Assembly (NCBI GenBank): GCA_000002445.1
Contig: AL929603.2
Span: 352,001 to 416,000, forward strand
Source of the DNA: Trypanosoma brucei
Lineage: Eukaryota
Direction of reading: 5' to 3'
Length of the DNA: 64,000 bases
Shown: one piece after another, positions 4,937 through 24,872 of the stretch
Numbering within the stretch: position 1 is the first letter of the stretch
Layout: each line of letters opens with the position of its first letter
Position numbers and translations under genes: made by a program
The notes under the pieces: generated by a model
What the model was told of the DNA's origin: nothing
What the model saw: only the letters and a program-made list of their open reading frames with translations
Databases searched by the model: none

Positions 4937-5674
4937 ATGCTGGTTCGAACATGGATGTTGCTCAATAGGCCAAAGGGGCCGCAGGGATTACGTCCTGGAA
5001 AAGAGTACCGCTTAACTGTCCCATACAGAAGTGAGGTGACAATGCTTCGCCTTGCAAATCATAAGGCTATTAACTCTAATATACGTGAACTTTTCAAAAA
5101 ACCACTGGTGATGAATAATATTAAAGCCATTCCCCGCGATTTGGGAGAAATTCCGCGCGACTACGTCCTCCGGCTGCTTTTCTTTCATCAGCCCATACGA
5201 CTCGTGGACTTGTGGACGATTTGTAAGGAGCACGATGACGTTCCACTGGATTCGGCGAAACATCTGCGATTAGTATTAAAAATAGCCAAACTTCAACGGT
5301 GGGTGTACGCGGAAAAGAATCAAACGAACAACCTTTACTACTACTACGTGCATCAGAGTAGAATACAAGAGGTACAGCAAATGGTTCGAGCCAGTGAGGT
5401 ACGAAAGAAAGAACAAGAAAGTTTACGGGAAATTGAAGCTGAAAAATTGCGTATGGAAGAGCAAGAACGTCGTAAGGTGGCACTTGACGAGAATATTGTA
5501 GCATTGCAAAATGCGCTCGTTTCAAATATTGCACAAATTCAGGAGTTTGACCCGGGGTTTGCACGATCGAAACCATATGTAACGGAAAGTGGTGCAGTGA
5601 ATGTAGGGTGGGGGTTGAATGATGGAGGTAGCGCTGCATGCAGTAGCGATTTGGATGGGCAGCAAGTGGCATAG
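4937..5674 (+). CDS. Hypothetical protein (245 aa), C-terminal coiled-coil-like E/K/R-rich segment
   Basis: ATG-initiated ORF on the array strand with coding-like composition and no recognisable family. The true start could be a downstream Met. Confidence 0.5.
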   Translation: MLVRTWMLLNRPKGPQGLRPGKEYRLTVPYRSEVTMLRLANHKAINSNIRELFKKPLVMNNIKAIPRDLGEIPRDYVLRLLFFHQPIRLVDLWTICKEHDDVPLDSAKHLRLVLKIAKLQRWVYAEKNQTNNLYYYYVHQSRIQEVQQMVRASEVRKKEQESLREIEAEKLRMEEQERRKVALDENIVALQNALVSNIAQIQEFDPGFARSKPYVTESGAVNVGWGLNDGGSAACSSDLDGQQVA

Positions 5675-5707
5675 TTACTGAATTCAGTGGCGCAGTTTAT
5701 GCGGAAT

Positions 5708-5744
<37 letters not shown>

Positions 5745-6354
5745 AAAAAAAAATAACAACAACAAAATGACGTCGTATGTGGTTGTTTAATCTGGAAGGT
5801 GCCATCTTCTCCATGTGAGCGATATCTCGGTGGTAGATGTTTCACCTTTTGCAAGTTACTGGGTTCGTGTTAAGTTACCGAGTCGTTTACATCCCGTCAA
5901 ACCTTTTTATGCTTATATCGTTTTGGCAGTGTGTGTGTGTATGTGTATGTGTGCGCAGTCTCCGTAGTCCATAGGTTTGTAGTGCTCAGATAGCGCTTAA
6001 CATAACATATTGTCTTCCTAACTCATTCACTGACTGCGTTTTTGTGTGTTAACTCTGTTTCATCTCGCATCATAGTCATCGTGGTCTTGCTTTTTCTTTT
6101 TTTTCTTCTCGCCCTTTTGTGGGTATTTTGTAAAAACTGAGTGGACCGCTTGAGGGGAACAATTCGCCCCAGCGAGTTAACTGCACCACTAGCAACTAAA
6201 AAAAAAAAAAGAAGAAACGGGTGGGGACAGTGGGCCTAAAACATACAAGTCCTTGAATTTACGCACGTGCGTCGGATTTTTTTTGTTTGTTTCATTATTA
6301 TTATTATTATTTTTCGTGAGCGTGTGCAAGCATCAACATCCATAGATATTTCAG

Positions 6355-6936
6355 ATGTGTGACACAGGCGTTCAGCCACCTCTTGCGGTTGTGGTCCCCG
6401 GAAGCCCCGTTATAACGCAGTTTCAGTGCATTGTTGAAGGTACCAACTGGATTGTACCCTTGGGTTTTGCTCCAGAGAGTATTGTAGTATTTCTCACATT
6501 CCCTACACTATTAAATCCCGGTACCGCACTGGGCATTTATCTCGCCCGAGAGGATGATAGGGCATTTGCATATGTTGGACATTTATCGAATACAGCACCC
6601 AGTGCCATATTGCGTGTTCCATCAACATTTATCAACATTGATTCTCCCGTACGTGTCTTACTGGGAGTCAGCACTGAGCGAGAGGTGGATATTGCGAATT
6701 TAGACGATGCAACAAAACAGCAACAGGAACAAGATAGAGCGGCTACAAAACTGGCCTTATCAGAGCGACTTGCGGAGGATTTGTATAATTTTGTGACTTC
6801 GTACGGCCGGGTGGTGCCCGCGGAGCAAAATGACGGGAAGTCGGAGGAGGCCGTGTTTCTTCCCATGTCATTTGTAGACCGCTGGCGTGAGCGTGTGATG
6901 AAAAGGATGCGGAAGGAACTGGCCTTTTGGAGTTGA
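6355..6936 (+). CDS. Hikeshi / OPI10 (DUF775) family protein
   Basis: ATG start. Motifs PLAVVVPGSPV, IVVFLTFP..PGTALGIYLA, APSAILRV and the C-terminal FLPMSFVDRWRERVMKRMRKELAFWS parallel human Hikeshi (FGCLVAGRLV.., [50 protein letters not shown]). Confidence 0.65.
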   Translation: MCDTGVQPPLAVVVPGSPVITQFQCIVEGTNWIVPLGFAPESIVVFLTFPTLLNPGTALGIYLAREDDRAFAYVGHLSNTAPSAILRVPSTFINIDSPVRVLLGVSTEREVDIANLDDATKQQQEQDRAATKLALSERLAEDLYNFVTSYGRVVPAEQNDGKSEEAVFLPMSFVDRWRERVMKRMRKELAFWS

Positions 6937-8099
6937 GATGCAAAAAAAAAAGAAAAAGCGGGGGAGGGGAAAATAATAATAATAATAATAATATCGTAAA
7001 GGTGCGAGAAAAGTGAAGGAGGAATCCTTGGGGTCTCTGCAGTTTTGATGTGCGGCCGGGAGATGTATTCATTCCGCCGCTACAACTTCAGTCGCAGTTC
7101 AATGCAGCCGCGGGTGTAGGGGTCGGAGAACTTCTGTGGTTATTTATGTGGCGGGTGGGGACTTCTATTCAGTTATGTGGAGTTCGCCCAACGCTAGCTA
7201 GTGATAGATAATCATTATTATTATTATTGTTATTACTATTACTATTATTATTGTTCTCACCGTGTTACTATTGTTATTATTACGTATTCTCTGAAACAAC
7301 AACTGTTTACAATCCTTTGGACTAATCGATTATTTTTCCGACATACGCTGTTGGATCAGCGTATGTTTAGCTCCTTATTTTCTTCCTTTACATTTAATCT
7401 TGTTGTCTCATGAGCTTTATCTTACATGATTTTTTCCTTCTTTTTTTTGTTAAATATAAAAAAAAATATTTCCACTATTTTTTTTTTTCCAGCAGCTGTG
7501 TACATTGGCTGAACCGCAGTATTTGTGCGAAGATTTAGCCACAGTTACCGAAAAGCGGAAGGGATAATAAAGGCAAAACCAACATATTGACCGCAGCAAA
7601 GGAAATAAAAAAGAACTAGAGTAGAGCCAAAGCGGTTGTGCTGTTGGGGATTGGAAGTGGGCAATCAATCACTGCGCTCGGAGGTTGTTGACGTTAATTT
7701 TTTTCTTTTTTTGGATACCCACAGTGGAAAAATATATATATTAAAAAAAAAAGGAAAGGAAGGGTGGATCAAAGCTGCAACAACAAAAACAACACCGAAA
7801 ACAAAAAACAAAAAATAACTGTGTAAGAGATTAATAAGATAGAAGAGAGGTAAGGGGGAAAATAAAAAATAAAAAATAAAGCACAACCAGTCTACCGTGG
7901 ATTGAGGGAGGGGAAATAAAATTAAAGTTAAAAAAACAAAAAGGGAACAAGAACGGAAAGTTAAAGAAAAAGAAAGAAGGGCAGTACGGAAGGTGGAGAA
8001 CTTAACGAAGAGAAAGAAAAAGGTGACATAAAGTTTTCCCGGTGGACGCGCAGCCGTATTTTCGTGTAAGCGGAAAGTGTGAGTTTGCCACCGTGGCAT

Positions 8100-8180
8100 T
8101 CACGCGTTCACGCATTGTTTTCTGTTATTTCTTTTAGTCGTTGCCTCACTTGTTGTGAGTTTTACTGTTCACTTTCAAGT
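8100..8180 (+). promoter_or_regulatory. Pyrimidine-rich tract upstream of paralogue A; candidate trans-splice acceptor/polyadenylation-coupling region
   Basis: cattgttttctgttatttcttttagtcgttgcctcacttgttgtgagttttactgttcactttcaag, with AG dinucleotides downstream before the ATG at 8261. Confidence 0.35.
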
Positions 8181-8260
8181 GCACGCATTGTCGCATATCG
8201 GTGGATATTCATTAGGGTTGGTAAAGTAAACAGCAGCGAAAGGATAGGAACAACTCAGAG

Positions 8261-10252
8261 ATGGGTGCCTTTCCGTCTCATGATGCCCCTGAGCTCATAT
8301 ACTCAATGTTAGTTCTGCGTCCATCGACAAATTCTCAGGTTGAGGTTTGCCTGGTGCCTCTTCTGCCGCGTTTCTTCAATGATGGGCACAAAAAGGCGAA
8401 GAAGAAGCTCAATGAACTTCTCGCCAGCAAAGGAGCGCATCAATCGTCACTAGCGGCGTCACTTGCCCCTCGAGCCCCAGCGACTATAGCTCCAGGGAAG
8501 GTTCCAGATCAGGGAATCGGTCACGCCTTAGTGGACTACTTCATTTCCAGTACGGAGGGATCCTTTTTTGTAACCACAAAGGATGCCGTAGTTAGTAAAG
8601 TGGCCATACAAGCGGAGCAAGGTCAAAGGGAGAGGTCTGACATCAGCACTACTGGAGGAAGATCCGCACCAGGTACCGCCTCCACAGGTGAGACACAACC
8701 CTCCAATGCACCATCTCATACGGCGCATCATTCGTCATCCCACCAGGCAATGTCCAACTCTGTGCGGCCGGTGCCATTTGCCGTTTGTATTGTGGATTCG
8801 GATGTCTCCACGGGAACTCCGGGCACCACTGGAGGGTCCGCACAAGCGGCAGCCGCTAAGCACCATCATGTACATGCCAATAATGTTGTCCTTATCAAAG
8901 GGCGGCGGCTGCAACTTGTTGGCTTTATTGCATGTTGTATGGATCGCCCTGTGCGACACATGACCACGGCAAATCCTGTCAAACCACATGGAGCTAGCGG
9001 TGGGGCGGGAGCAACCTCTGGAGAGGGAAAGAAGCAAGGAATCCCTGTCTGTCTGGATGTTATTTTTGATGATACAGAGGCACATGGGTTCCTTACCGAG
9101 TCTGTAGTGTTGTTGGCATCATTTGCCTTCCGCAAGCAATTCTTGAATTGTTGTGCTCTTCACTTTCGGGCCGGGGATCCCGATGTGGAATCATCATTTG
9201 GGCGCCACATGGACCCCTTGCAGCTTCGACTAGTGATGAGGCATGACAACTATCGCATTTTACGCCTGTTTCATAGCCGGTACCCCCTGTTAGACATGGT
9301 CAAAGAGCTTCGCGTAAGCGGGGGCTCGTCGGCCCCGCAGTTCTCTCTCTATGAAAACGATGGAAATGAGGTTGGTTTAGAAGTGACGTTTGGTATGAAT
9401 TTTTTAACGCGGTGGATGCGGTTTGTGGAGAAGATGATGCACGTTGAGACGGTGGTTGGTAACCACATCCGTTGCGGTACCACCGCCATAATGTCGGAGC
9501 GAGATAAACTAATACAGGAGCGCAGGGACAGTGGCGCATTCCTGGAGGAGGAGGAGGATGATGAGCGAATCTTTGGGGGAGCCGTGTACGCCGTGTCGCT
9601 GAGGCGGTGGACTGCTGCAGAGAAGCAGGCGGTTCAGCAACAACAGCAAGTTCCATTGAGTGGAGCATCTCCCATGTATGTGTATCCCACTACCGCTGCT
9701 CCTGGTCAGTACTGGCCACAGATGTCCGTGATGATGGGGCAACCTCCAGGGTGGCCCACTAGTGTTGTTCCTTTGAGTGCTGCTGCTGCTGCACCGACGG
9801 CCGTGGCACCGGTGATTGGGCAACAACAACCATTTGTTATTCAAGCATCAGGGACGCGACCGCAATTGTACTACGCGTCGCCGCAACCGACTGTAAGTGG
9901 GAACGCCACTTTTGTTACCCAGAGCGGTATTCCGATAGTACAGCAAGCAGCGACGGCGTCTCCATTTGGTGTTGCGGCAACACAACCCGCCTCTGGGCAG
10001 CAGATCGTATACGTCATGCAGGGCGCCCAGGCAACTTCCGCTAGTGTTGCAGCCCCTACAGTTTCGGCTATGGCGCCTGGCATGACTCCTCAAGCATTTT
10101 ATTATCCCCAAACTACCGCCTACGCTGTTCCCTACTCTCCATACGGCTTTCAGCAGCAACCACAGCAACAATTGGTAACACAAGCGACTCATATTGGCAC
10201 TCAACAACAACAACAGCAGGTGACATCGGCGGGGCAAGTAGCTCAACAGTAG
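8261..10252 (+). CDS. Paralogue A of an unnamed kinetoplastid protein family (MGxxPS N-terminus, Cys-containing core, long Q/P/A-rich C-terminal tail)
   Basis: ATG start MGAFPSHDAPEL. Core motifs RPVPFAVCIVD, LVGFIACCMD and FLTESVVLLASFAFRKQF are shared with the ORFs at 15865 and 22878. The C-terminal ~200 aa are low-complexity Q/P/A-rich. Confidence 0.75.
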   Translation: MGAFPSHDAPELIYSMLVLRPSTNSQVEVCLVPLLPRFFNDGHKKAKKKLNELLASKGAHQSSLAASLAPRAPATIAPGKVPDQGIGHALVDYFISSTEGSFFVTTKDAVVSKVAIQAEQGQRERSDISTTGGRSAPGTASTGETQPSNAPSHTAHHSSSHQAMSNSVRPVPFAVCIVDSDVSTGTPGTTGGSAQAAAAKHHHVHANNVVLIKGRRLQLVGFIACCMDRPVRHMTTANPVKPHGASGGAGATSGEGKKQGIPVCLDVIFDDTEAHGFLTESVVLLASFAFRKQFLNCCALHFRAGDPDVESSFGRHMDPLQLRLVMRHDNYRILRLFHSRYPLLDMVKELRVSGGSSAPQFSLYENDGNEVGLEVTFGMNFLTRWMRFVEKMMHVETVVGNHIRCGTTAIMSERDKLIQERRDSGAFLEEEEDDERIFGGAVYAVSLRRWTAAEKQAVQQQQQVPLSGASPMYVYPTTAAPGQYWPQMSVMMGQPPGWPTSVVPLSAAAAAPTAVAPVIGQQQPFVIQASGTRPQLYYASPQPTVSGNATFVTQSGIPIVQQAATASPFGVAATQPASGQQIVYVMQGAQATSASVAAPTVSAMAPGMTPQAFYYPQTTAYAVPYSPYGFQQQPQQQLVTQATHIGTQQQQQQVTSAGQVAQQ

Positions 10253-12121
10253 ACAGTGGTGGCACCGCGCAATTTTTTTTTTTTGTGGTAACGCCACACC
10301 TTATGGGTGTTGTTATGTACTTGTTGTTATCCCTATTTATTTATTTTTTTATTTATTTATCACGTGTGAAACGGGGTATTTTTGTCATTGCCCCATAACA
10401 CGTGTGAGTGTAAAGCGGCTGTGGCTCTGATTGTTTGATGCCAACGATGGAACATTTGGTGCGTATGTGGGGGGCAAAAAACAAACAAACAAACAAACAA
10501 ATAAACTAATTAACGGAGTAAATACGGGTGGGTCGAGAGGGTGAAGTGGGCAATCGGTAGGAATGGAAAAGGAAAAGAGACGAAGTACGTTTGTACATGC
10601 AACTTGCTTTCACATCATACCGATTCTCTATCCCCCGTAAATGAACTAATAATATAAATAAAATCATTAAAAAGAGAAGAAGCTAGCCAAAAAAAAAAAT
10701 GATATACATATATATATATATATATATATTTGAGGGGGGGGAAAAAAAAGTATATACATAAGTATATATGTGCGGTGGAGGTAAGTGCGTGTACTTCGTG
10801 TATATGTGTTTGTGTTTGTGTTTGTGTACATGCCCCTCTTCCCTCCCTCCCCCTCCCTCCAAAACAAACAAACAAACAAACTTATATATATTTTAGCTAA
10901 CATTGTTGTGAGTAACGAAGTGAAGGGTGCGAATAACGAATGGCCCGTCGTACAGAAGCGCGTGGAGGGGAGGCATATGAAATATATGATTAAGGGAAGG
11001 AACAGGAAAAGGAAAAGGAAAAGGAGGAGGAGGAGGAGGAGGGAAATAAGAAAAAAAAAGAAAAGGAAAAAAAAATAACTCAATGGTGAGATGTGGCGGT
11101 AATATTTCTGCATTGGCATGGGTGTTTGTGTGCATGTGACAGAGGGTTTAAGGTAAAGTTGCTGTTTTTTTTTTCTTCTGTTTTCTTTTATACAAAAGTG
11201 GAAAGGGACAGGAAGGAGAAATTAGTTTTGTGAGAACACCTGTAACATCCGGGCGCGTGCGTTTGTGTGTGTCTGTTTTGTGCGGAAAACAGAAAAAAAA
11301 AGATAATTGAGGTAAATGCACAAATATCAACTAATGGATATCTCACCATCATCATCATTATCATTACCATTTTCATTAGCAACGTTATCGCCATTTTTGG
11401 TAACACCCTCATTTGTAATGGCAGCTGTTTTCACTCTGAGTTGAGTTATTTCCTCCCTTTTCAATGGCGCATATATTAAAACCGCCGTTGCCATCGCCGT
11501 TGCCGTTGCCGCTATCATCATTGCTCTCTTTTTTTTTCTCTCTCTCTCTCTTTCTCTCTCTCTCTGCTTTTCGTAATGAACATTCCTCAAAATGTGATTA
11601 TAGCTGAATATTCGTGTGCCTTTTACCTCAGTGGGTGTCAAGCTTCCGTCACAAGTAAGAAAGTAAAAAAAAAAGAGAAGGAATACATCACTAATTTTCT
11701 TTTTTTCTTTTTTTTTCTTCTTCTTCTTCCTTTTATCGGGGTGGTGATGTTCACGACTTTCCGAATGTTTCTACTTTTTTAAAAAGAAAAAAAAACAACA
11801 ACAATATTTTATGTTCTTCAATCATGTTCTTTTTTTTTTTTCTCTCTCTCTCTCTCTCCCTCTCATCCTCTTTTTCGTTTGTTTTATCTTCTTTCGTTTG
11901 AATTGCTGCTTCTTCATTTATCCTATCTTCTTGTTTGTGTTTGTTTCGGATTTTTGTTTTGTTTGTTTGTTAAACAGAATCACACTTTTCAGCGGTTATG
12001 CATTTTTGTATCTCATTAAATTTCCTCTTTGTCTCCCTTTTGTCTCTCTTTTTCTTTTCTTTTGAATTTGGCTTCAGTACACACTTTATATTAGAACATA
12101 TCATATTACAAACACATACAA

Positions 12122-12156
<35 letters not shown>

Positions 12157-14696
12157 GTATTTATCAACTGAAACGAATTTCCCTTCCATCTTCTTGCGAA
12201 ACTTCCTCACATGGATGCAGCCTTTGTGCGTGGATGATAAATACGTGAATACGTTCGCTTATATTCAATACATAAGCGGGTGCAATTGTCGTTGTTGTTG
12301 TTGTTGTTTGTGCACGCGTACATGAAACATTTTCTCATTATTATGTGCTTATGTTTCCTTTCCTTTCCTTTTCTCTCTCCCTCTTTTCCGCACGCGCACA
12401 CAAACATGCACATGAATATGCGCAACATCTTATTAAATATGATTGCTGGAGTTGTTTTATATTAATAATTTTGGTCCCCTTCCTTTCTCTTCATCTCCTC
12501 CTTGAGTAAATGGATAAATTCCATTTTATACACTATGTAAGGTTTAATATATAAATATATAAATAAATATATATATATATATATATTAGAAAAAATGAAA
12601 GGAAGGAGAAGGCAGCGAAAATAAAAGAATAGAAGAGAAAAGATAGGAGAGGAGAGGAGGAGAAGGGGGGAAAAAAGAAGAAATTAAGAAAAAAAAAAGT
12701 AAAATGTGATAATTATAGAAGAATGAACAGTGGTGTCCGAGCCGGAATGTTAAATAGTCCAATTGATGTGAGAGAGAAAGTAAGAGAAAGAGAGAGAGAG
12801 AGAGAGAAGTCCTAGGATTTCAAACAACATCATTCATGGGATATATAGGAAGCCAAAAAAAGGAACATATTTGTCTTTTGTCTTTTGTCTTCTTTCTTTG
12901 GAAAAAAATAATAATTCATCATTGCCTTATATATATATATATCACTCAGTGATCACGTAAGCTAATGATGAAAAGGGAACAAATGCATTTCATCGGCACC
13001 TCGCCTACGAGAAACCCGGAAGGTTACGCATAACCCGACTCAAGAAATTACGGAATTATCCAGTGGGAAGGAAAAAGCAACAACAACAACAACAACAACA
13101 AAACAACCACATGTAACTCAGGACTCAATACTTTACAAGTGAGGAAAAAAAATAAAAATAATTACAAACTTAAGTTTTTATTGGAGGACCGGCTTTGGAA
13201 GCCGTCATATCGAAAGACCGCCATCTTTAGTTTTCCCCTTTTGTTTGTTTGTTTGTTTGTTTTTGTCCCTCGGAAAGATGAGTTGAAACTCACTTCAACA
13301 ATATCATGTGCCCAATACTTTCCATTACCATAAGAGAGAAAGAGTGAAAGAGAGAGAGAGGGTACTCTAAGTTATTATGCATTGTAGTTATATATTTATA
13401 TGTACATTAATATTAATATTAATATTTTTGTTATTTAATTTATATATTTATATATATTTATATATTCATGTTGGTCTGTTGGTATCCATGCAAAACCGAC
13501 CCGTGCATGAAATGTGGACTTTCATAACATAATATAAACTCAAATTCGGTACTGGTTGCTTGATATTACGGTAACGCATTTACTGCCAAAAGGCGAACAA
13601 TTCTCTGAAGGAAGAAACAAATATAGGCGCATGCATGCAAAAAAAAAAAAACAACAACACAAAAGAGGAAAATATGGCTTCAGGAAAAGAGGCACGGAAG
13701 CGAATCAAGAAGAAAAATAAAAATAAAAAATTAGAAAGTGGGTGGGAAGGGGCGAAGAGAAATATTTCTATTAGTGGTGAATGTTATGTAGATATGCACT
13801 CAGCAGAGACATTAATATAGACATGTGAAAAAATAAGTAGGTGTGTATACAATAAATATATATATATATGTGTGTGTATATGTATGTATATATATGTATA
13901 TAAATGTATATGGTGGTGCGTGTTATAAGAGGAGGAGGTTTAATAGTGTGGGATTTGTACAGTTGTTTCTCTCTTATCAATTCATTCGTCTGTTTCTGTG
14001 TTTTCCTCTCACCATGTATCGATAAGACGGGAATTGTCACCCGAAAGTTTGTTAATGCACTTGTTTTCTTTTTCTTTTTTTTTTTACTTTCTCGCATTTT
14101 CTGTAGCCCAGTGCCACTTCGACTACCATTACTATTATTATTATTATCAGTAGCAGTAATAGTAGTAGTAATATCAATATTTGCTTTGGTGTTATTAAAG
14201 TTGATATGTTATGAGTGTTGTGATTGTGACTGTTAAGATTTAATTTCTTGTTTCCCCTCTGTGAGTGTATTTTTATATATTATTATCATTGTTATTTTAA
14301 TCTGTAATCTCTTTGTTTTATTTATGTCTCTCTCTCTCTCTCCCTCTTTGTTTGTCTCTTTGTTTTACGTCCACTTCTTCAATTCGTTTCTTCTTTCACT
14401 TTCCCTTTTTTTTTTCGTAAAAAAATTGTGTCCCTTCCGTTTAACCACGCAATTTTCTGTTGTGTTTCACTGCATTGCATTCACATTTGACGGGGTTAGC
14501 CGGAAGGGAAGTGAAACACACAAGAAAACAAAAGAAAAAGGTAAAGTAAAACAGAAAAAAAGAGTAAAGGGAAGTTATTTATTTATTTTTATTTTATCTT
14601 CTGTTCGTATTTGTCGTCCGCGCGACATTCGGCGTTTGTTTTTGTGTGCGCGGTTTTGGCTGTTAGTTTCATATCCAGTCGGATCCGTTCAGTGGC

Positions 14697-14945
14697 GTGG
14701 CTGTGCGAAAAAGTTTAAGGAGGAGGAGGAGGAGGAGGGGAAGGAAAAAGAAGAAAAGAAAAATAAAAGAAGCAAGAACAAAAACAAAAAAGAAAAAGAA
14801 GAGGAAAGAAAAGGGGAAAGGGGCGCGGCTCATCTGCACTTTTACTCCATTGCATTCGCCCTTTAAAAGAAAAAAAAAGAAAAGAAGGGAAGGGAAGGGA
14901 AGGGAAGGGAAAAGAAGGAGGAAACAAAAAAGAAGAAAATTCCTT
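14697..14945 (+). repeat. Purine-only GA-rich block ((GGA)n, (AAGGG)n, A-runs) on the coding strand within a spacer
   Basis: gaggaggaggaggaggagg ... gggaagggaagggaagggaagggaaaag. It produces spurious K/E/R-rich ORFs on both strands. A similar block lies at about 26220-26345. Confidence 0.8.
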
Positions 14946-15864
14946 TATCCCTTTCTTGTGCCATCGTCATCGCAACACTATAAACAATAGGGAACGTGTG
15001 TAAACCTTTTCTCTATCTCTCTCTATCTCTCTCTTTTTTATTATTATTATTTTCTTTGTTCCATACAAACACACAAGCCGACTTAACATAAGGCAGTTGG
15101 GGCGGAAGCCGCGGGCACCACCACTGCTGTAGTTGTTTTTTTTTAGTTTTTCTTTGTTCTTTCGTGTCTTATCTTATTTTAATTTACTCTTGTTTTTTGT
15201 TTTAGTGCTTTTTTTCTTTGATTTATTGTTCTTGTCGGCACCGTTATTGTTATTGTTGGTGCTACTCCCAGTGGTGCATTACTTTGGACGAGGCAAAGTA
15301 GTCCATTTTTTTTTAAAAATTATTCCTCCTCTTTGTTCTCTTTCTTTTATTTAATTCATATTTTTTTTTACTATTTGTTACCGTTATTATTTGTTTATTT
15401 GTTGTTTCCATTTATTTTAATTTACTGTCCTGTCATTCACTTTCTTTACGAAGGTGTAAGTTGGGAAAAAACGTGCGCACGGGAGAGAAACAGAAATACA
15501 AATACATACAGAAGTTAGGGGAGAAATAAATTAAAGCAAAAAAGAAAAAAAAGAGAAGAAACAACAGAACGAAACAGAAGAAAAACGGAAGGGGAAAAAG
15601 AACAGAATTAAGTGACAACACAGTGAGAAGAAGGAGTGAAAGCGAAAAAGGGGGAAAACAAACAGTAACAAAGCAAAAGAAAAAAAGAGTGAAATTCTCT
15701 GCTTAATAAAAAGCAAGTGTATATAACATATATATCTGTATATATATATATATACCTATAATTTGTTTATTTATTTATATATTTGTCTTGTTATTGTTAT
15801 TGTTATTTTTTTTATTTTTGATTACTTTGCCATTGATATATATATATATATATATTTGTTAACA

Positions 15865-17622
15865 ATGGGTGGTATTCCTTCACGCGACGCGCCTACTACA
15901 TTGTTTTGCCTTCGGTACGGCACCCATGAGGTAGGACTCATTCCCCTCGTGTACCGCTACTTTCACAGTGATAACAAGGAGTTGCGAGAGCAGTTTGTGC
16001 GGGTGCGTAATGATCCGAGCATACGCTACAGCTTCATGCGTAGCCCCGAGTATCGTATGGATGAAATACCAAAGAAAGTGTATACAGAGAAGACTCTGGA
16101 CAAGTTCCTTGATGTTATCGATGAATCACTTTACGATTCCACAAGTGCGATGCTCGCAGATGAAGACGCGCCATTCCGGCCCGTTCCTTGCGCCGTTTGC
16201 TTCGTGTATGTTAATGGTCGTGAGGGATCTGATTGTTTTTCATTCTATGGCCGCCGCATTAATATCATTGGTCACTTTGGCTGTTACGAATCCGAGGATA
16301 GGGTTAGTGAAGGCCCATGCCTCCACGCCCGAAAAACTATTTTGAAGGCTGCGGGTGATCGCACGCTGGAGCGTGTTGTTACACTGGCCGCTATGATGCT
16401 CAAAGGGGAATTCTTCCGCGCCGTTCAAACGGTGTGCCCCACGCGGGACCCACTGGCAATGTTAAAGCGCCGACTGAATCCCTTGATACTTGTCGCCTCT
16501 ACACCATGGAACAGTTACCCCACCTTGAAGTTTGTTTACGATACCGCCGTTATTGCATGGGCGTATGGAAAGGAAGTCGTTGAGGCGGATCCGCCGCGCC
16601 TCTCCATGTACGAAATTGAACAAAGCGGTGAGGGTGGCTTATGTATGCGAGTCAGTGGCTCGGTGCTTTTGTGGGCTGTTATGCGCGTGTGTGAGACACT
16701 TACGCTTTCTGCAGTGCGTGGATCCTGGGAGCAGTACGTGCTGGATGACTTTGAGATGCAGCAGAAGGAAAAAATTGTCTCCCAGTGGCTTTCCACAAGC
16801 CCACATGTAAACAGTTTCCTCGGGTCAGAAACATTCACCGACCTCGTACAGAAACGACTGGCTACTCTTCTGCGGGAAGTTGTGCGCGCCCGTGAGACCC
16901 CGACAGAAGACACAACGCTGTGGGGTGAATCACAGGAGTATAGTCATGATGGAAAACTCTACCGTATCTTCAATTCCCCAACTTGCGGCCCTTTCCTTGC
17001 AACTGTGAAGAAGAAGGTGCCTAAGCGGGGAAGCAGCGCCAACACCGGCAATGCAAGTATTACAAGTGCAACTGGTGGTGACTCAGCGAGTGACCGGCGC
17101 TCCAGTGGTGTTCACCTCACGGACTCACCCAGCAGTGGTGGAGAAAATAAATCCCGCAGCTCCGGTCAGGGGAACCCCCGATCCAAAAACAATGGCAACC
17201 AACCTTCTGGTTTCCCCGCACACAACAATGCTGGTCAGCCCCCGCAGTACAAAGATGCTGTCAATAGTGTTCTCCAGTCGCAGTTCGCAACAGCTGCGCA
17301 GCGTGTCGTGTATCAAATGCCGCCTCCCGTCGGCAAAACCTCTCAGGGCCAAGTGTCCGTTTCCCCTCAGATGTCACCGCAGTTTGTACCGATGTTTCAA
17401 ACTGCACCTCCGCCACCCATGCAGCAATTTAGCGTTCCATATGTTGTAATGGCGCCACCCGAGTCACAGCCGCAGCCGCAGCCGCAACCTCAACCTCAAC
17501 CACAACCCCAAATGGGAATGGTGTTCCCAAGCACTGTTGCAAATTATGTGCTTTTGCCAGATGGGCGGGTCGGAATGATCAACGCACCAGCGCCCCCCAC
17601 TATGGGCTTCTGGGGTCAGTGA
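15865..17622 (+). CDS. Paralogue B of the same family
   Basis: The track ORF starts at a TTG at 15763, inside a TA repeat. The first in-frame ATG at 15865 gives MGGIPSRDAP, which aligns with the N-termini of paralogues A and C. Shared motifs are GLIPL, PVPCAVCFVY, IIGHFGC and GDRTLERV. The C-terminus carries a (QP)8 run and is P/Q-rich. Confidence 0.75.
   Translation: MGGIPSRDAPTTLFCLRYGTHEVGLIPLVYRYFHSDNKELREQFVRVRNDPSIRYSFMRSPEYRMDEIPKKVYTEKTLDKFLDVIDESLYDSTSAMLADEDAPFRPVPCAVCFVYVNGREGSDCFSFYGRRINIIGHFGCYESEDRVSEGPCLHARKTILKAAGDRTLERVVTLAAMMLKGEFFRAVQTVCPTRDPLAMLKRRLNPLILVASTPWNSYPTLKFVYDTAVIAWAYGKEVVEADPPRLSMYEIEQSGEGGLCMRVSGSVLLWAVMRVCETLTLSAVRGSWEQYVLDDFEMQQKEKIVSQWLSTSPHVNSFLGSETFTDLVQKRLATLLREVVRARETPTEDTTLWGESQEYSHDGKLYRIFNSPTCGPFLATVKKKVPKRGSSANTGNASITSATGGDSASDRRSSGVHLTDSPSSGGENKSRSSGQGNPRSKNNGNQPSGFPAHNNAGQPPQYKDAVNSVLQSQFATAAQRVVYQMPPPVGKTSQGQVSVSPQMSPQFVPMFQTAPPPPMQQFSVPYVVMAPPESQPQPQPQPQPQPQPQMGMVFPSTVANYVLLPDGRVGMINAPAPPTMGFWGQ
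17467..17512 (+). repeat. (CAGCCG)/(CAACCT) hexanucleotide repeat encoding (QP)8 in paralogue B
   Basis: Sequence: cagccgcagccgcagccgcaacctcaacctcaaccacaaccccaa. Confidence 0.8.
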
Positions 17623-19892
17623 GCGAAGCTTCTGCGCTGCGGAGAGTGGGGGAAGTGTTTTTCTTTTTTTTTTATTTTTTTACTCTTTTTATTTTTATGT
17701 TGTTGGTGTTGTGTTATTATTATTATTATTAATCACTGGCAGTGTAAATATGTGCCTGGTTACGTCGGTATTGGTGTACGTATATAAACATATATATATA
17801 TGTATTCGCTTTGTTACCCGCATTCTTCCACTTCAAGAAGGGCAAAAAGGAAGAGAAATAAAAGAAGAAATGTAACTTTGTGTTTTGGTTTTTATTTGCC
17901 CCCCCCCCTCCCGGTTTCTTCGCTTTGTCTCTCTTCTCCTGCATACACGTGCGCTATTGTGTTGCGGGCCAAAATGGTGTCATTTGTTTGTTTGTTTATT
18001 TGTTCAGTGTTAAAAAGTTTTCACTGCTTCATCATTTGTAGCTGTGGTGGTGCTTCTTTTTTTCTTTTTCTTGTGTGTGCATATATATATATATATATAT
18101 ATTGACGTTGTTTATTTTTGTTCCGTGCGGTGCCGAGTGACCGCTGTTGTTCCTAACTTTTGGGTAGACATCACTAAAACGCATTTCTACTTTGTAGTTG
18201 CTATCGTTGTTGTTTTTTTCAAAGAAAAATATTTGTTTATTATTACTATTTTTTAATAATATCTTCCAGCAACTGAAGAAAAAAAATAATAATTATAATA
18301 ATATATATTATAATTTAATTATTTATTGGGTTTGATAACTTGTTTGGTACATTTTCAAGGAACCAAAATTTTTTTGTAGAATTTATTTTATTTTATTTTT
18401 TTCGTTTTTTCCCCTTAAATTGAAGTAAGAAAGGGGACAAAGAGGAAGAAAAAGAAAATAAAATGAGGGATAAGGTCAAAATAAATAAGGGAGCGTTGAA
18501 ATTAAAGAAAAAAAATATGTATTTTTTCGATACCTCTCATAAGTCTTCTTTAAAAAAAACGAGACCCATGTTATTTAATAAAACAATTCAGAGAAAACGA
18601 AATGAGAGAAGAGGGGTAAAAAAAAGAGAAAGATACAAAACGCCATTTCATTGATGGCAATGTGTTGAGTGAATGGGACATTGCATTTTTATATTTTTTT
18701 TAAAAAATATATATATTAAATGAATGATAGTTAGCGAAATGAAGCAGAAAGAAAAAAAAGAAAAGAGAAGAGGAGGTAGAGGGAAGAGATGATATTAATA
18801 ACCGACCATTGTAAGAAAAGTGAAGAAAAAGGAAAAAGAAAAGGCATTGTGTTATTGCAGAAAAGACACAAACATGATGCCGTGTAGAGGAGGAAAATAT
18901 ACTCCAAAATAATAATTAAAAAAAAAAGGAAGAAGCGCTGTGGCACCTACGCAATCACATTTATAAATACCTAAATATTTAAATACAAGACAAATCAAGC
19001 GACACATGTATATTTGTATTTAATGTATTTATAATATATTTGTTTATTTATATATACGTATACATACATACACGAATGAACAAATAAACACAGAAATATA
19101 TATATATATATATATATTTATTTATATTTATATTTATATATATACACGCATACTTAATAACAAATACCCCAGAGGAACATGGTTTCACGATTGTCAGCCT
19201 TTTCCTCGTTATTTTATCTTTTTTTTTTTTTACTACCAAAATACTGAGAACCCCCGCCGATTTTGTATTTCTTTTTTAAAATTTCATGTTTACCATCGTC
19301 ATGATGTTTATTTATCACTGCTACTAATTATTATTGTTGTTGTTGTTGGTGTTGGTGCTGTTGGTTTTTTTTATTTTCTTTCGTTGTAGCTGCGTAACGC
19401 AAATCGTTTTGTTTGTTGATTGTGCCCCCATTTTAATATATTTTCTTTTTTCCCCTTTTTTACACTGTTTTTTTTTGTTTGTGCTCCCATAATTTTTTTC
19501 AATGATTGTTTTTTATTTTTAAATTTCTTGTTATTATTGTTGTTGTTACTATTTTTTCTAAATTTATTTTGCGGACATATTTATATTTCAATATTTAATG
19601 CGTCCATTATAATTATTATCACTGGTTTCATTATCACCTCGTCTTGTTTTTTGTCTTCGTCATGAATCTGCGGACGTATTTCTCATAATGTCCAAAATAA
19701 ATAAATAATAGTAATAATATTAATATATATATATTAATATTGTGTGATGCGTATTTCTATCTCTTATTTTCAACTTGTAAAGAGAAGGAAAAAGAAAAAA
19801 AAAGGCAACAAATCTGTAACATGCATTACTCCTCGTAGTAGTAGTAGTACTAGTAGTTTTTTTTCCCCCAACCAGCTCCCGTTTTTGGCCGT

Positions 19893-19901
19893 TATTTTTA
19901 A

Positions 19902-19954
<53 letters not shown>
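19893..19954 (+). repeat. (TTA)~20 microsatellite in an intergenic spacer
   Basis: Perfect ATT/TTA triplet run. Confidence 0.9.
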
Positions 19955-19956
<2 letters not shown>

Positions 19957-20355
19957 TTGCTCCTCATCTACATCTTTTGTCGTTGTTATTGATGTCTTTT
20001 TTTTTTGTCTCGTGGAGGGCAGCAAAATAATAATTAAAAAAAAAATAATAATTTTAAAAGAAAAAACAAAAACACAACACAGAGCAAAAAGGAAAAAAAA
20101 AGAAAGAAAATGGTAGCGGGGAATCGTGTTGGGGTTTAAGCGAGAAAAAAAAAATAATAATTCCAAGCAACAGCACCAACAATATTAGTAGTAGTAATAA
20201 AAACAAACAAAAAACAAATATCTCTTTTTTTTTTGTCTTCTTAAAAAGTTGTGTGTATAAAAAGTTCCTGCACGCGGATGTGGACCTCCTTCCTCGTCCC
20301 ACTTCTCGTATTTTATTACTATTATTATTGTTATGATTGCCATCATATATATTAC

Positions 20356-20393
<38 letters not shown>

Positions 20394-22199
20394 CCTGCAC
20401 ATATGCTCCGAAACATATATGAATAAATACAAAAAAAACTAAATATTTATTATATATTTATACATAATTGTTTTCATCATGTTTTAACACTTCCAATATA
20501 AATGTGAGTGATTTTATTTTATTTTTTTGACGTGTACGTGTACGTGTATTCAATTTCCTTCTAACGAAATGAAATGAATGCCCTTGAAAAAGAGAGAGAA
20601 GTGAAATAAAAAAAACAAAAAAATTGAAGTAAATGGGAGGGCTGAAGGGGTCGTGTACTCCTAATTTTAATTTTAATTTCTTTTGTTTTGTGACTTTTTG
20701 TTGTTGTTTTCGTCGTTTTCTTTCCTTTTCTTTTTTTTGTTAAAGCACCCGACGCCGCGTGTAATGACGCAGTGGGAAGCAGTGGTGTAAACAATTCCAA
20801 GAGAGCAAAGGAGTTGAAAAGTGGAGCAACAATAAATAAATATAATTTGTAAAATTATTGTGTGACGAAACAAAACAAAGCACAACAAAACGGAAATAAA
20901 ATATATATGTATGTAGATATATATATATATATATATTGAGTAAATGAGTGAATACCCCTCTTTTTTTTTATTTTATTTTTTTGAGTGTGAGGAGAGAGGA
21001 GAAGGAATATTAATGAAGGAGCGGATTGTTTTCTAGTTAAACAAAAAAAATTATATAGAAACTGGTAGAAAACACACGGGATGGAAATTGAGCGGTAAAA
21101 ACTTGAGAAGAGGACGAAGTTTTAAGAAGGATATGCGAGCGATGTACATTTCATTTTATTTTTTGATTCTCTTTTATTACTATTATTATTTTTACTTTAC
21201 TTTTTTTTCTTTTTCTTTCTCTTTTTATATCTTATATGATTATTAATATTTTGCCTCTTTTTAATAGAGGTTCATGCAGCGCATTCGCCTTCGTTGGTGC
21301 AGTTCTTCATGATCAATTCGTAAATCTCAACCCGCCGCGTCACTTTTTTCCTCCCATTTTGTTGTGTTTGATTTGAAAGGGGGGAATGGGGTAAAAATTA
21401 GAAGGAGAGCCATTGTGTTGTTCATTCGCAAGTGTGTTGTTATTAAAATTCAACTTATATATATTTCTTTATTTTTCTGTATATTTTTAACGCATTTTTA
21501 CTTTTAAATAAATAAATAATATATATATATATATATATGACTATTGATTTTCTCCTCCTTATTTGGTCGTTGTTGATACTTGTATTTCTTTTTTTTTTTT
21601 TGTGTGTGTGGTTTGTTCGTAAGTTTAACTCATCCTCTGTTACCATTACATATGTGTGTTTGTGTGAAGGAGTGCGATAGAGCGAGAAGGAAACAGAGAG
21701 TGTGTTTGTGTGCATTTGAAAGAAAGACAAAAATAAAAAGCAAAGCGAAGAGGGTGAGAGTATATATATATATTATTATTATTAAACCAACAATAAAAGA
21801 GGGAAAGTGGGGGAAGGTAATGGAAGTGTGAAATGTTGTCGTGCATGAAATTTCGAAGATATGCGTACGATCTAATTTTATGTATTTGTGTTTGTTTACA
21901 CGCGTGCGTGACATAAGTAAATGGAAGTGTGGGATGGGACATGGACAAATAATTGCCATTTGAAATATTCGTTAATTGCATCCCACCCTGTCCAATTCCT
22001 TTTGTGGCGCTCCGTGTCCTGCTCAACTCCATCCCCTTTATTTTATTTCTTTTTTGTCGTTTATTTTATTTTATTTCAGGCCCATTGTCAATTTCATTTA
22101 TGCTCTACGTGTTAGCTCTACTAATGACTTTGCAATGTCTTCATGTTTCATAACCCTTATTGGTTTTATCATTTTTACTGAATCACTTACTCGCTGTAC

Positions 22200-22262
22200 A
22201 TCACTCTGTTTCTTCTTCTGTTCTTATGTTTTTTCTTTTTTGTTTATTTATTTATTTATGAA
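22200..22262 (+). promoter_or_regulatory. Pyrimidine-rich tract in the spacer upstream of paralogue C
   Basis: tttcttcttctgttcttatgttttttcttttttgtttatttatttatttatg. It is one candidate among several, because the 5' UTR could also be long. Confidence 0.25.
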
Positions 22263-22877
22263 ACAACAACAACTACAATCATGAACAGGTCTTAAAGTCA
22301 CTCCAGGGGTGTGAAAAAAGACAAAGTAAAAGAGGGAAAGAGAAATAGGTCTTTTCGCTCTTTTTTTTACTTTTACTTTTGTTTATTTTTCTTTTTCCAT
22401 TTCCATAAAGGAAACTGTCATTTATACGAGAAAGACAGGGGAAACCCAAATAAAGGAGGGAAAAGAAACGTGATCATCGAAAAACAAAATAATAAATCTT
22501 TTTGTCATTGTTTCTGCCTAACCTTTAGCGAGGTTATATAACGCTAAAGTGCAGAATCAGAGAAGAGGCTGAGGGGGAAAAAAAAAGAAAAAAAATACCG
22601 AAACGGGGAAGACAAAAGAAAAGAAAGATAATAATAATAATAATAACAAGAACAAGAACAAAAACAGGGAAGCAAGAGAACCGAGTGAGGAAAAGGGTAA
22701 CTTTGTGACAGGAAGGACCTTACATCAAAGGGGAAACACCTTTAGAGAAGAAAACGTTGCTGTAATTTCGCATTTGCCACACGGAAAAGTGTAGCAGACA
22801 AGAAAACGAAACAAGCAACAACTACGAGCACAAACACAACAAACGGCAAACAGCGACGGTGACGGTGACGAACAAAT

Positions 22878-24872
22878 ATGGGAGGTGCGCCTTCTCGGGA
22901 GGCGACAGTTGTGTACTCGTATCTGCGAGGTACGTATGAAATTGGCCTCATTCCCCTTACAAGTGCTTTCTTTGGCCGGCCGTCAGGACGGGGGGAACAT
23001 GAAGGGGAAAATGTGCTACGGGGGCATTTCTTACAGATGCGGGAGGATCTCTTCGCGGCCTGTACACTCCCAACCCGAAACAAAGTGCTCTCATGGACAG
23101 AAATCGTGCCCAATCGATTTACGGGGGAGGACCTTGACGCGTTTTTGGAAATTGTGGACAAGCGGCTCTACCCAACAAATGCGGCAATGGTAGCAGATAA
23201 AAATTCTCCACTTCTCCCGGTCCCATGTGCTGTTTGTCTTGTCTGCAAAGATGGTCGGGAGCGCCGTGGCAGTTTTCGCTGGCGCGGGCGGAACATTGTC
23301 ATCATCGGTTACTTTGGATGCATGGATGAAAAGCTTGATGCGGCTTTCAAAACAGAGAAACGCACGCCACGCCAGGGGATGTACAGCATCACTGCCGCTG
23401 TATTTCCCTCTATTGGTGATCGTACGTTTGACCGCGTTCTTGCCTTAGCACCAGTGATGCTTCGGGGGCAGTTTGTGGGATCTGTGTTGCAACTCCGTAG
23501 GGGAGGAGGGGAATTCGCAACGCCCTTGAGTGAGCGTGGGGAAATGGTTGATGTCTCTAGTGAGGCTCCTTCGCTCGGAGCGGGAATTGGTGGAGTGGTA
23601 GGGCAATCAGATGGATTGATTCATGAGGATTCTGCAGTTGACAGCGCCTTCGAAATGTTCGTGGAGCGCGTCTCCCAGATGTCTGTATTCGTTGAGGTGG
23701 TCTCGGATAACTACTCGTCACTGAAGTCTCTAGTGGAAAATGTTGCCTTCATCCAGATTCATACACAGGCGGAACCTAAACAGTGTACGCTTGATCTTCC
23801 TCCAATCGTTCAGAACGCCTTTAATCGCACTACAACTGCGAGCAGTTGCGAGAAGAAAGCTGACGCGGAGGGTCACCATGCAGAAAAGTCGCCTCCACAA
23901 CGTTCATCTGCCATGGAACAGGGGTCTTCTTGTTGCACCGTGCAAGGAGTAAGCTGCTCGTTGGAGCGCGATGATTTAACCGATCTGTCCAGTGTGGAGC
24001 CTGAAGGTTCATCTCACTTAAGTAAAGTGCCAACGGAGGATGGTGGTAGTTTTCACTTCTGTACAGAGATAGTTCGTGTTCATTTCAACGAGAGATATGT
24101 GTCCCTAGCCATCCAGTGGCTCTCAAGTTTCTTCCGAAAACCAACCTTGCTTGAGAATGGTTATTGGGTACACTACTGCCTGAAAAAGGAAGAGGAAGTG
24201 ATACGCAGAATACTCTGCCATCGCGATACTATTGTCTCCGGTTGGCGAACGTCTCACCCCGAACTCGCTAATCAATACATGGGTGACGGCACGGACAAAC
24301 TACTGGAGCACGTACGGATCCTTCAGCACGAATTACAACAAGCCCGCAAGGCTGCAGAAGAACCTACACTGCGTAAAAAAGCCAGTACGCCTCCCACTCT
24401 GCCGTGTCCGAATACCACTTCAATGGCAGTGTTGGCACCACCCCCTCCGCCTCATGTGATGCCGTACGCCGTGCCTCCTCTTCCGTCACCGGTTTATTTT
24501 GTTCAACAGCAACCTGTGGGAAACCCCATGTTTGTGTCGTTGCTTCCTTTTCAGCAAGTGCAGCAGGTTCCACAAGTGCAACAGATCCCACAATTTCAGC
24601 AGGTGCCGCAAATTCAGCCACTGCAACAGATTTCGCATGTGCAGCAGATCCCTCAATTGCAGCAAACCCAACCGGTACAGTCGATATCGCATGTTCAGCA
24701 GATTTCGCATGTGCAACCGATTCATCAAGTGCAGCAAATCTCACATGTGCAACCGATGCCATTGTACCACCTCCAACCACCTGAATTACAACAGCCCTCG
24801 GTTTGTTATCTTCCCTTTGGGGATGGAGGAGCTCTACCCCCAAGTTATGTCATTCCAAGCTCGCTGTCGTAG
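22878..24872 (+). CDS. Paralogue C of the same family
   Basis: ATG start MGGAPSREATVVYSYLRGTYEIGLIPL. Shared motifs are PVPCAVCLVC, IIGYFGC and GDRTFDRV. The C-terminus has degenerate heptad-like repeats (QQISHVQ / QQIPQFQ). Confidence 0.75.
   Translation: MGGAPSREATVVYSYLRGTYEIGLIPLTSAFFGRPSGRGEHEGENVLRGHFLQMREDLFAACTLPTRNKVLSWTEIVPNRFTGEDLDAFLEIVDKRLYPTNAAMVADKNSPLLPVPCAVCLVCKDGRERRGSFRWRGRNIVIIGYFGCMDEKLDAAFKTEKRTPRQGMYSITAAVFPSIGDRTFDRVLALAPVMLRGQFVGSVLQLRRGGGEFATPLSERGEMVDVSSEAPSLGAGIGGVVGQSDGLIHEDSAVDSAFEMFVERVSQMSVFVEVVSDNYSSLKSLVENVAFIQIHTQAEPKQCTLDLPPIVQNAFNRTTTASSCEKKADAEGHHAEKSPPQRSSAMEQGSSCCTVQGVSCSLERDDLTDLSSVEPEGSSHLSKVPTEDGGSFHFCTEIVRVHFNERYVSLAIQWLSSFFRKPTLLENGYWVHYCLKKEEEVIRRILCHRDTIVSGWRTSHPELANQYMGDGTDKLLEHVRILQHELQQARKAAEEPTLRKKASTPPTLPCPNTTSMAVLAPPPPPHVMPYAVPPLPSPVYFVQQQPVGNPMFVSLLPFQQVQQVPQVQQIPQFQQVPQIQPLQQISHVQQIPQLQQTQPVQSISHVQQISHVQPIHQVQQISHVQPMPLYHLQPPELQQPSVCYLPFGDGGALPPSYVIPSSLS
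24590..24765 (+). repeat. Degenerate ~21-nt tandem repeat (consensus near CAGCAGATTTCGCATGTGCAA) inside the 3' end of paralogue C, about 8 copies, encoding QQISHVQ / QQIPQFQ units
   Basis: Repeating CAGCAGAT(T/C)(T/C)C(G/A)CA(T/A)(G/T)TGCA units are visible in the sequence, with a matching periodicity in the translation. Confidence 0.7.

Follow-up and report, generated by a model that had tools for sequence, protein, structure and literature searches.

Annexin A11, epsin/AP180 and Hrs are adaptors in which a membrane-binding head is joined to a low-complexity tail. Among kinetoplastid proteins with acylated N-termini, the localization of CARP3 (Tb927.7.5340) depends on its N-terminal glycines and a protein partner (PMC9481589), and Tb927.1.2160, of the calpain-like, dually acylated type, is encoded on chromosome 1 (PMC1885993). 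Here we describe three further genes of Trypanosoma brucei chromosome 1, copies A, B and C, in a 64,000-nucleotide stretch of contig AL929603.2 (positions 352,001 to 416,000; hereafter the window). The three are named 'hypothetical protein, conserved' in the database entries examined and are real members of an ancient, uncharacterized gene family. Their products appear to be built of three parts: an N-terminal octapeptide M-G-[AG]-x-P-S-[RH]-[DE]; a core of ~330–450 residues predicted to comprise a divergent GNAT alpha/beta domain with a helical extension and, in B, a small beta module; and a nearly uncharged, P/Q-rich low-complexity tail of 167–208 residues (Table 1).

Like CARP3, the trio is lineage-restricted, N-myristoylated and without a Cys for palmitoylation, and CARP3 is a plausible functional analog. 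It differs in that its published description is of an alpha-helical domain that contains disordered loops and starts with three glycines (PMC9481589), and it has no GNAT-like core and no P/Q tail. CARP3 was rejected as a relative, being alpha-helical with an MGGG start by description and not among the superfamily matches. Calpain-like proteins of the SKCRP/CAP5.5/HASPB type share with the trio a kinetoplastid origin and an MG N-terminus, but the trio has no Cys at positions 3–5, no calpain/DUF1935 match in Pfam and a different predicted fold; the calpain/DUF1935 families, suggested as a control in a preliminary description of this locus, thus show no relationship to it. With annexin A11, epsin/AP180 and Hrs the trio shares the logic of its architecture, in which a long, P/Q-rich, presumably disordered tail bearing short motifs follows a folded module that associates with membranes; their folds are unrelated to that of the trio. 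Because acidic residues are missing from the A tail and very rare in the C tail, acidic motifs of the clathrin/AP type are absent or unlikely in these two tails.

The nearest systems in predicted fold are GNATs of the RimJ/RimL/NAT9/PseH type (the Acetyltransf_3-like branch), which the family also resembles in a Gly-containing loop at the beta4–alpha3 junction. The L-x-P-L first strand of the family presumably resembles the 'LRP' strand of the RimJ/RimL branch. No sequence similarity to RimJ/RimL-type GNATs is detectable, and motif A of the family is non-canonical. Unlike these GNATs, the family is eukaryotic, has been named from trypanosomatids only and combines a myristoylated N-terminus with large low-complexity loop insertions, a helical/beta C-terminal extension and a P/Q-rich tail of 170–600 residues.

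Copies B and C were related by single-sequence comparison (BLASTP E = 4e-37, 37% identity over amino acids 1–200; Smith–Waterman z = 55, 300 shuffles). A matched B with BLASTP E = 1e-5 and z = 7.7 (300 shuffles), a score that came mainly from the first ~40 residues and fell to z of ~2 without them, and BLASTP of A against C was not significant (E = 0.07). At the level of sequence, the homology of A to the other two copies was settled by comparing family profiles, each built separately from the orthologs of one copy. The A and B profiles aligned over 330 collinear columns with a probability of 98.7% (E = 1.5e-16), and those of B and C at E = 4e-53. With the N-terminal 40–45 residues removed, A and B still aligned over 228 columns (probability 97.2%, E = 2.8e-11) and A and C over 94 columns (E = 1.6e-5). 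A, B and C are, by these comparisons, real paralogs, with B and C mutually closer and A distant, as the preliminary description had proposed; the shared motifs are both collinear and significant. The core signature quoted there is exact in B and C and partial in A, which holds PVPFAVCIV and GRRLQLVGFIAC but no GDRT.

Judged from gene order and orthologs, the triplication is older than the Trypanosoma–Leishmania split. The T. vivax locus reads Hikeshi, A, 5.1 kb, B, 5.2 kb, C, matching the order and spacing of T. brucei, and the consecutively numbered L. donovani genes LdBPK_200750, LdBPK_200760 and LdBPK_200770 have N-termini of the A, B and C type, respectively. The shared order and the consecutive Leishmania orthologs thus make the duplication ancient, in agreement with the age first ascribed to it. 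Orthologs of B were found from T. congolense (74% identity) through Leishmania and Phytomonas. The idea of a three-gene family, in turn, proved too narrow. The trio belongs to a larger superfamily: a core profile search returned 92 cluster representatives (50% identity), 39 of them with E ≤ 1e-30, and T. brucei has at least two additional paralogs on other chromosomes. Additional clades begin MGAAPSAE, MGALPSRE, MGAVPSRES or MGGAPSRET. All representatives bearing an organism name are trypanosomatid (genera Trypanosoma, Leishmania, Phytomonas and Angomonas), and among these the superfamily has so far been named from trypanosomatids only.

The superfamily is also strongly conserved at its start. 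The N-terminus of C is MGGAPSRE, and GAFPSH (A), GGIPSR (B) and GGAPSR (C) all fit PROSITE PS00008, G-{EDRKHPFYW}-x(2)-[STAGCN]-{P}, by inspection. The N-terminal Gly was kept in every close homolog (28/28), and 104 of 112 superfamily sequences open with M-G-[AG]-x-P-S-[RH]-[DE]; the remaining eight have no recognizable start, several being visibly truncated or starting upstream. In these 104 sequences, Gly2 and Ser6 are invariant behind M1, position 3 is Ala (71) or Gly (28), position 4 is variable, Pro5 is present in 99, position 7 is Arg (71) or His (18), 89 together, and position 8 is Glu (78) or Asp (24), 102 together. Such conservation, as read from the alignment, far exceeds the requirement of N-myristoyltransferase (NMT). 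The synonymous codons used for the peptide differ among the three T. brucei copies, and the constraint therefore acts on the peptide, at the protein level.

All three T. brucei loci were already listed in 2007 as high-confidence predicted N-myristoylated proteins (PMC1885993), and the same prediction in the preliminary description is borne out in orthologs by NMT-inhibitor-sensitive labeling. In L. donovani, LdBPK_200750 (A type) and LdBPK_200770 (C type) were tagged by YnMyr and significantly lowered by NMT inhibitor (PMC4372256, Table S5). LdBPK_200770 is listed under 'High confidence myristoylation', and LdBPK_200750 was significant by t-test at 7 μM inhibitor, a result by which high-confidence NMT substrates are defined in that study (PMC4372256). 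In T. cruzi, the C ortholog K4DTI6 was azidomyristate-enriched and significantly lowered by DDD85646 (H/L −1.19), and TCSYLVIO_002913, a member of another superfamily clade, was likewise azidomyristate-enriched (PMC4974623). By orthology, the three proteins count as bona fide substrates of NMT. A has its first Cys at position 30 and B at position 15, and in C no Cys precedes position 30; because no copy has Cys at positions 3–5, dual acylation is not expected. A basic cluster adjoining the N-terminus was not noticed on inspection. A lone myristate in this setting would therefore give only weak, reversible membrane affinity. With Tb927.1.1500 (copy C) recorded as 'cytoplasm (reticulated)' in TrypTag (PMC7568655), the earlier term 'membrane-anchored' is too strong.

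An AlphaFold2 model of B (residues 1–390, alignment of 27 sequences) reached a predicted local distance difference test score (pLDDT) of 89 and a predicted template modeling score (pTM) of 0.88, and the model of A a pTM of 0.75. Foldseek matches to the PDB were weak, with all E-values >0.008, and the best of them were GNATs. In structural comparisons made with both the A and the B model, the best 60 matches consisted exclusively of GNATs, with most of each GNAT domain aligned, and the nearest were bona fide enzymes of the RimJ/RimL/NAT9/PseH type. The secondary structure of the B model, assigned by DSSP, fits the GNAT order beta1-alpha1-alpha2-beta2-4-alpha3-beta5-alpha4-beta6-7. As modeled, the core has a GNAT-like fold, with membership of the superfamily by descent unproven. 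The earlier remark that the core was not recognizable as any named domain holds for Pfam, but the A and B models predict a fold for it.

GNAT motif A, Q/R-x-x-G-x-G/A at the beta4–alpha3 junction, binds the pyrophosphate of coenzyme A (CoA). The KAAGD of B, placed at the predicted junction by the DSSP string and not by superposition, reads K57, S52/A22, A75, G80, D69 in the superfamily logo (n = 98), so that in K-[SA]-A-G-D-[RHQ] the K/G are kept and the final G/A is absent. The A clade reads E-A-H-G-[FY]-L at this position after a one-residue shift. Other near-invariant core positions are L25-x-P27-L28 in the first strands, P106-V-P-C-A110, G129-R, G136, A175 and Y218-x-x-L221, the last lying two residues after a mostly Asn/Asp position. 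The first ten residues were also placed confidently (pLDDT 88 in B and 82 in A), and in each of the two models residues 3 and 6 form beta-bridges; this placement, together with the hyper-conservation of the octapeptide, suggests that the N-terminal peptide packs onto the core. In a profile hmmsearch of PDB sequences, TALE-repeat proteins appeared at E ~1e-11 and were rejected as an artifact: the score is the sum of many sub-threshold 'VLCQAHGLTPEQVVAIAS'-like repeat matches, with single-repeat i-Evalues of 39–960. The 34-residue TALE repeat matches 'VLKAAGDRTLERVVLLAA' at profile positions 152–202 (B residues ~150–190), a warning case of repeat-inflated E-values.

Helices follow the GNAT-like part, and copy B also has a three-stranded beta module. 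The module, 'W..QEYSHDGKLYRIFNSPxCGPFLxTVK' (window 16921–17016, B residues 353–384), is kept in all B orthologs. It is also kept in C of T. cruzi and T. vivax (T. vivax locus 17110–19752), lost in C of T. brucei and T. congolense, and absent from A. Its identification as a WW domain was rejected, as the resemblance is visual only, four family segments gave no Pfam match at E ≤ 10 and, of the two signature Trp, the first alone is present.

The tails comprise 208 residues in A (Q20/A16/P12%, 0% charged), 200 in B (P16/S12/Q12/G10%, with a (QP)8 run) and 167 in C (Q20/P20/V11%). Across the three, Q+N amounts to 18–22%, charged residues to 0–10% and Pro to 12–20%, a Pro level that disfavors amyloid. 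The tails are thus low-complexity and Q/P-rich as first described, and 'prion-like' is a loose term for this Q+N content with high Pro. Across the family, tail length varies from 167 to >600 residues, and repeat type varies too. T. b. gambiense C is shorter by 12 residues at the 18-nucleotide repeat region, and the A tail has a Q-run that differs in length by three Gln from its T. b. gambiense counterpart, so that repeat number in the tails is polymorphic within T. brucei.

Short conserved elements are set in this sequence. At B residues 459–462, 'PPxY[KQE][DE]A[VI]NSV' stands at a constant tail position in most Trypanosoma B orthologs, and in Trypanosoma C orthologs a PPxY lies close to the C-terminus (C residues 654–657, 24837–24848). 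The PPxY motifs may be ligands of WW-type modules or chance occurrences in P-rich sequence. The last ~20 residues of B (17560–17619), 'NYVLLPDGR[IV]G..N.P..P..GFW', are conserved throughout Trypanosoma and partly in Phytomonas, inside the low-complexity tail, and resemble a short linear motif, or else a strand that may fold back onto the core.

On balance, we lean toward reading A, B and C as reversibly membrane-associated, NMT-dependent proteins, in which a GNAT-like ligand-binding or pseudoenzyme head is coupled to its own N-terminus and the tail makes multivalent contacts. NMT would attach myristate to Gly2, as it does in the orthologs, and myristate alone would confer a weak, reversible affinity for membranes, which is consistent with the reticulated cytoplasmic signal of Tb927.1.1500; A and B may be localized in a similar manner. 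Because the N-terminal peptide is hyper-conserved and, in the models, packed on the core, lipid exposure and the state of the core may be linked. The core appears to retain the CoA pyrophosphate loop only partially, with K-[SA]-A-G-D in place of Q/R-x-x-G-x-G/A, and for this reason a ligand-binding or pseudoenzyme scaffold is rated likelier than a canonical acetyltransferase. The tail would provide multivalent, low-affinity contacts; conserved PPxY and short aromatic motifs are set in its P/Q-rich sequence. In a more specific form, the superfamily would consist of GNAT-fold pseudo-N-terminal-acetyltransferases whose own myristoylated N-terminal peptide, G-[AG]-x-P-S-[RH]-[DE], sits in the groove that ancestrally took up peptide and acyl-CoA, with occupancy of the core by a ligand such as acyl-CoA gating lipid exposure and, through it, recruitment of the multivalent P/Q-rich tail to membranes. 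This is a long shot; if true, the groove-held myristoylated N-terminus would constitute a novel type of myristoyl switch.

Several observations weigh against a lipid-coupled GNAT-like head. The labeling evidence for NMT dependence comes from orthologs only and not from the T. brucei proteins themselves, and for the B-type LdBPK_200760 a few peptides were detected, with no quantification (PMC4372256). Pfam was empty at E ≤ 5 for the three proteins and for the cores of 24 family members, hhalign of this profile with the E. coli proteins RimJ and RimL (NC_000913.3), made for the family as a whole, gave a probability of <1%, and the PDB hmmsearch returned no GNAT, only the TALE artifact. The multiple sequence alignments behind the models were shallow, and that of A also contained B and C sequences. 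Disorder of the tails is deduced from composition alone, and Tb927.1.1500 has been flagged 'Gene Expression', in reference to a study of mRNA binding and regulation (PMID 26784394, as given in PMC7568655), a hint of another role. Alignments of 25–27 sequences, Foldseek E-values without exception above 0.008 and uniformly negative sequence methods (Pfam, PDB hmmsearch and hhalign) are also what an AlphaFold artifact, or convergence on a common alpha/beta sandwich, would offer, in which case the GNAT resemblance would be meaningless and the core a new fold family of unrelated function. We regard this as highly improbable in view of the high model confidence in both copies, the recovery of GNATs only among the best 60 matches by two different queries with most of each domain aligned, and a secondary-structure order that fits GNAT.

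If the fold is taken at face value, the core could instead be active, the proteins being membrane-recruited acyltransferases that use acetyl-CoA or a longer acyl-CoA on a protein N-terminus, a lysine, a lipid or a small-molecule amine, with myristate only positioning the enzyme. That the closest structural neighbors are bona fide enzymes speaks for such activity, as do a Gly kept by 80 of 98 sequences at the place of motif A, the strong conservation of K-[SA]-A-G-D, of an Asn/Asp that precedes the invariant helix-alpha4 Tyr by two residues and of several invariant Pro, Gly and Cys, and a B core highly conserved from Trypanosoma to Leishmania. The canonical Q/R-x-x-G-x-G/A is nevertheless not matched, with R/H/Q at its final position and the A clade diverged further, and Pfam and hhalign against RimJ/RimL show no similarity in sequence to GNAT families. 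We therefore hold an active enzyme to be unlikely, if deserving of serious consideration. The 'Gene Expression' category and reticulated cytoplasmic signal of Tb927.1.1500 (PMC7568655), together with uncharged, Q/P-rich tails, would also suit post-transcriptional regulators or components of ribonucleoprotein granules, in which the Q/P tail is the working part, serving as an activation or condensation domain, and the head and lipid tether ribonucleoproteins to endomembranes much as annexin A11 does. Pfam scans show no RNA-binding domain, however, and head and N-terminus are the most conserved parts, whereas the tails vary in length (167 to >600 residues) and repeat type; a role of this kind appears improbable. 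Tb927.1.1500 was also over-represented 6-fold in a melarsoprol gain-of-function screen (PMC7568655).

The gene assignments rest on several matches. Copy A shows 99% identity to its cluster representative, and the cluster includes the same-length TREU927 protein Q4GZ77; its N-terminal sequence was matched to Tb927.1.1420 in the supplement of Mills et al. 2007 (PMC1885993). Copy C shows 97% identity to a T. b. gambiense cluster representative, in a cluster that includes the same-length TREU927 protein Q4GZ71. Tb927.1.1470 (B) and Tb927.1.1500 (C) are listed as the T. brucei counterparts of LmjF20.0700, with the B-type N-terminus MGATPSREAR, and of LmjF20.0705, with a C-type N-terminus, respectively (PMC1885993). 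The mechanical open reading frame (ORF) of B begins at a TTG at 15763, upstream of its first ATG, from which the 585 residues are counted.

Table 1 Features of the A, B and C genes and their surroundings in the window (aa, amino acids; nt, nucleotides).
Feature	Position	Strand	Basis
Copy A, Tb927.1.1420; UniProt Q4GZ77	8261–10252	+	ORF, 663 aa
A octapeptide MGAFPSHD, NMT substrate motif	8261–8284	+	Sequence; L. donovani ortholog LdBPK_200750 NMT-inhibitor sensitive
A tail, aa 456–663, Q/A/P-rich, zero charged residues	9626–10249	+	Composition
A–B spacer, 5612 nt, GC 0.34, low-complexity, without credible ORF	10253–15864		ORF, repeat and Rfam scans
Copy B, Tb927.1.1470	15865–17622	+	ORF, 585 aa; orthologs from T. 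congolense to Leishmania/Phytomonas
B octapeptide MGGIPSRD	15865–15888	+	Sequence; model pLDDT 88 for residues 1–10
B predicted GNAT-like alpha/beta core, aa 13–293	15901–16743	+	Predicted model
B KAAGD, aa 161–165, predicted beta4–alpha3 junction	16345–16359	+	Logo, n = 98; place from DSSP string
B predicted helical extension, aa 295–344, and three-stranded beta module, aa 353–384	16747–17016	+	DSSP of model
B tail, aa 386–585, P/S/Q/G-rich, (QP)8, C-terminal 'NYVLLPDGR[IV]G'	17020–17619	+	Composition, orthologs
B PPQY, PPxY motif at constant tail position in Trypanosoma B orthologs	17239–17250	+	Ortholog comparison
B–C spacer, 5255 nt, GC 0.30	17623–22877		Repeat and Rfam scans
Copy C, Tb927.1.1500; UniProt Q4GZ71	22878–24872	+	ORF, 664 aa
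C tail, aa 498–664, Q/P/V-rich	24369–24869	+	Composition
C-tail imperfect tandem repeat, 18 nt (6 aa, QQ[IV][PS][HQ][VL]-like)	24543–24757	+	Repeat search
Stretch 3′ of C, 8837 nt, GC 0.31, without + strand ORF ≥180 aa	24873–33709		ORF scan

Every long ORF of the window is on the + strand, and the trio looks to sit within a single polycistronic unit of unrelated housekeeping genes, its neighbors including a PP2A-type HEAT protein, Hikeshi, a PAS/cNMP kinase, TTL, an AAA ATPase, SCO1, TruD and a DEAD helicase. Cumulative GC skew climbs steadily from 0.15 to 3.13 across the window, which is what one polycistronic transcription unit of a trypanosomatid should show. The 1742-residue protein encoded at 33710–38938, which precedes a 3.8 kb gap, joins a cyclic-nucleotide-binding domain and a PAS domain to a C-terminal protein kinase domain. 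Further + strand ORFs lie at 4937–5674 (245 residues), with no Pfam match, 42788–44761 (657 residues), with a weak, sub-threshold Tubulin_3 match, and 59390–60223 (277 residues).

The preliminary description had noted gene-free spacers of 5.2–5.6 kb without obvious shared sequence, and this was confirmed: the A–B and B–C spacers have in common just AT/AG/TC low-complexity repeats. The only spacer ORFs of at least 150 residues, 10667–11119 (−) and 14261–14866 (+), are translated simple repeats, and an Rfam scan of the whole window gave zero matches. A blastn comparison of the T. brucei and T. vivax loci for shared spacer elements gave no alignment, coding regions included, and is therefore uninformative on the spacers. 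The gaps 3′ of A, B and C measure 5.6, 5.3 and 8.8 kb (GC 0.30–0.34), compared with 0.25–2 kb between most other gene pairs of the window; in T. vivax the gaps are 5.1 and 5.2 kb (locus 4920–10000 and 11894–17109), and in L. mexicana at least 10 kb upstream of B is free of credible ORFs. The long gaps are probably very long untranslated regions, and the A–B spacer probably a long untranslated region plus intergenic sequence; if so, heavy post-transcriptional control may be suspected.

Published lists already contain both the genes and their lipidation. Searches of the literature with the gene and UniProt identifiers of the trio returned a single incidental mention, and none of the papers searched connects the family with GNATs. 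In the searchable literature we found no description of the family-level view, of the hyper-conserved octapeptide or of the GNAT-like fold. [quoted passage not shown] The present family supplies several NMT substrates, of the A and C types in L. donovani and of the C type and another clade in T. cruzi, and it is conserved across trypanosomatids with several paralogs per genome. The predicted GNAT-like fold gives these 'hypothetical proteins' concrete biochemical tests, namely acyl-CoA binding, transferase activity and a myristoyl switch, and the family would extend the GNAT superfamily by a highly diverged branch specific to this lineage, or by an offshoot of pseudoenzymes.

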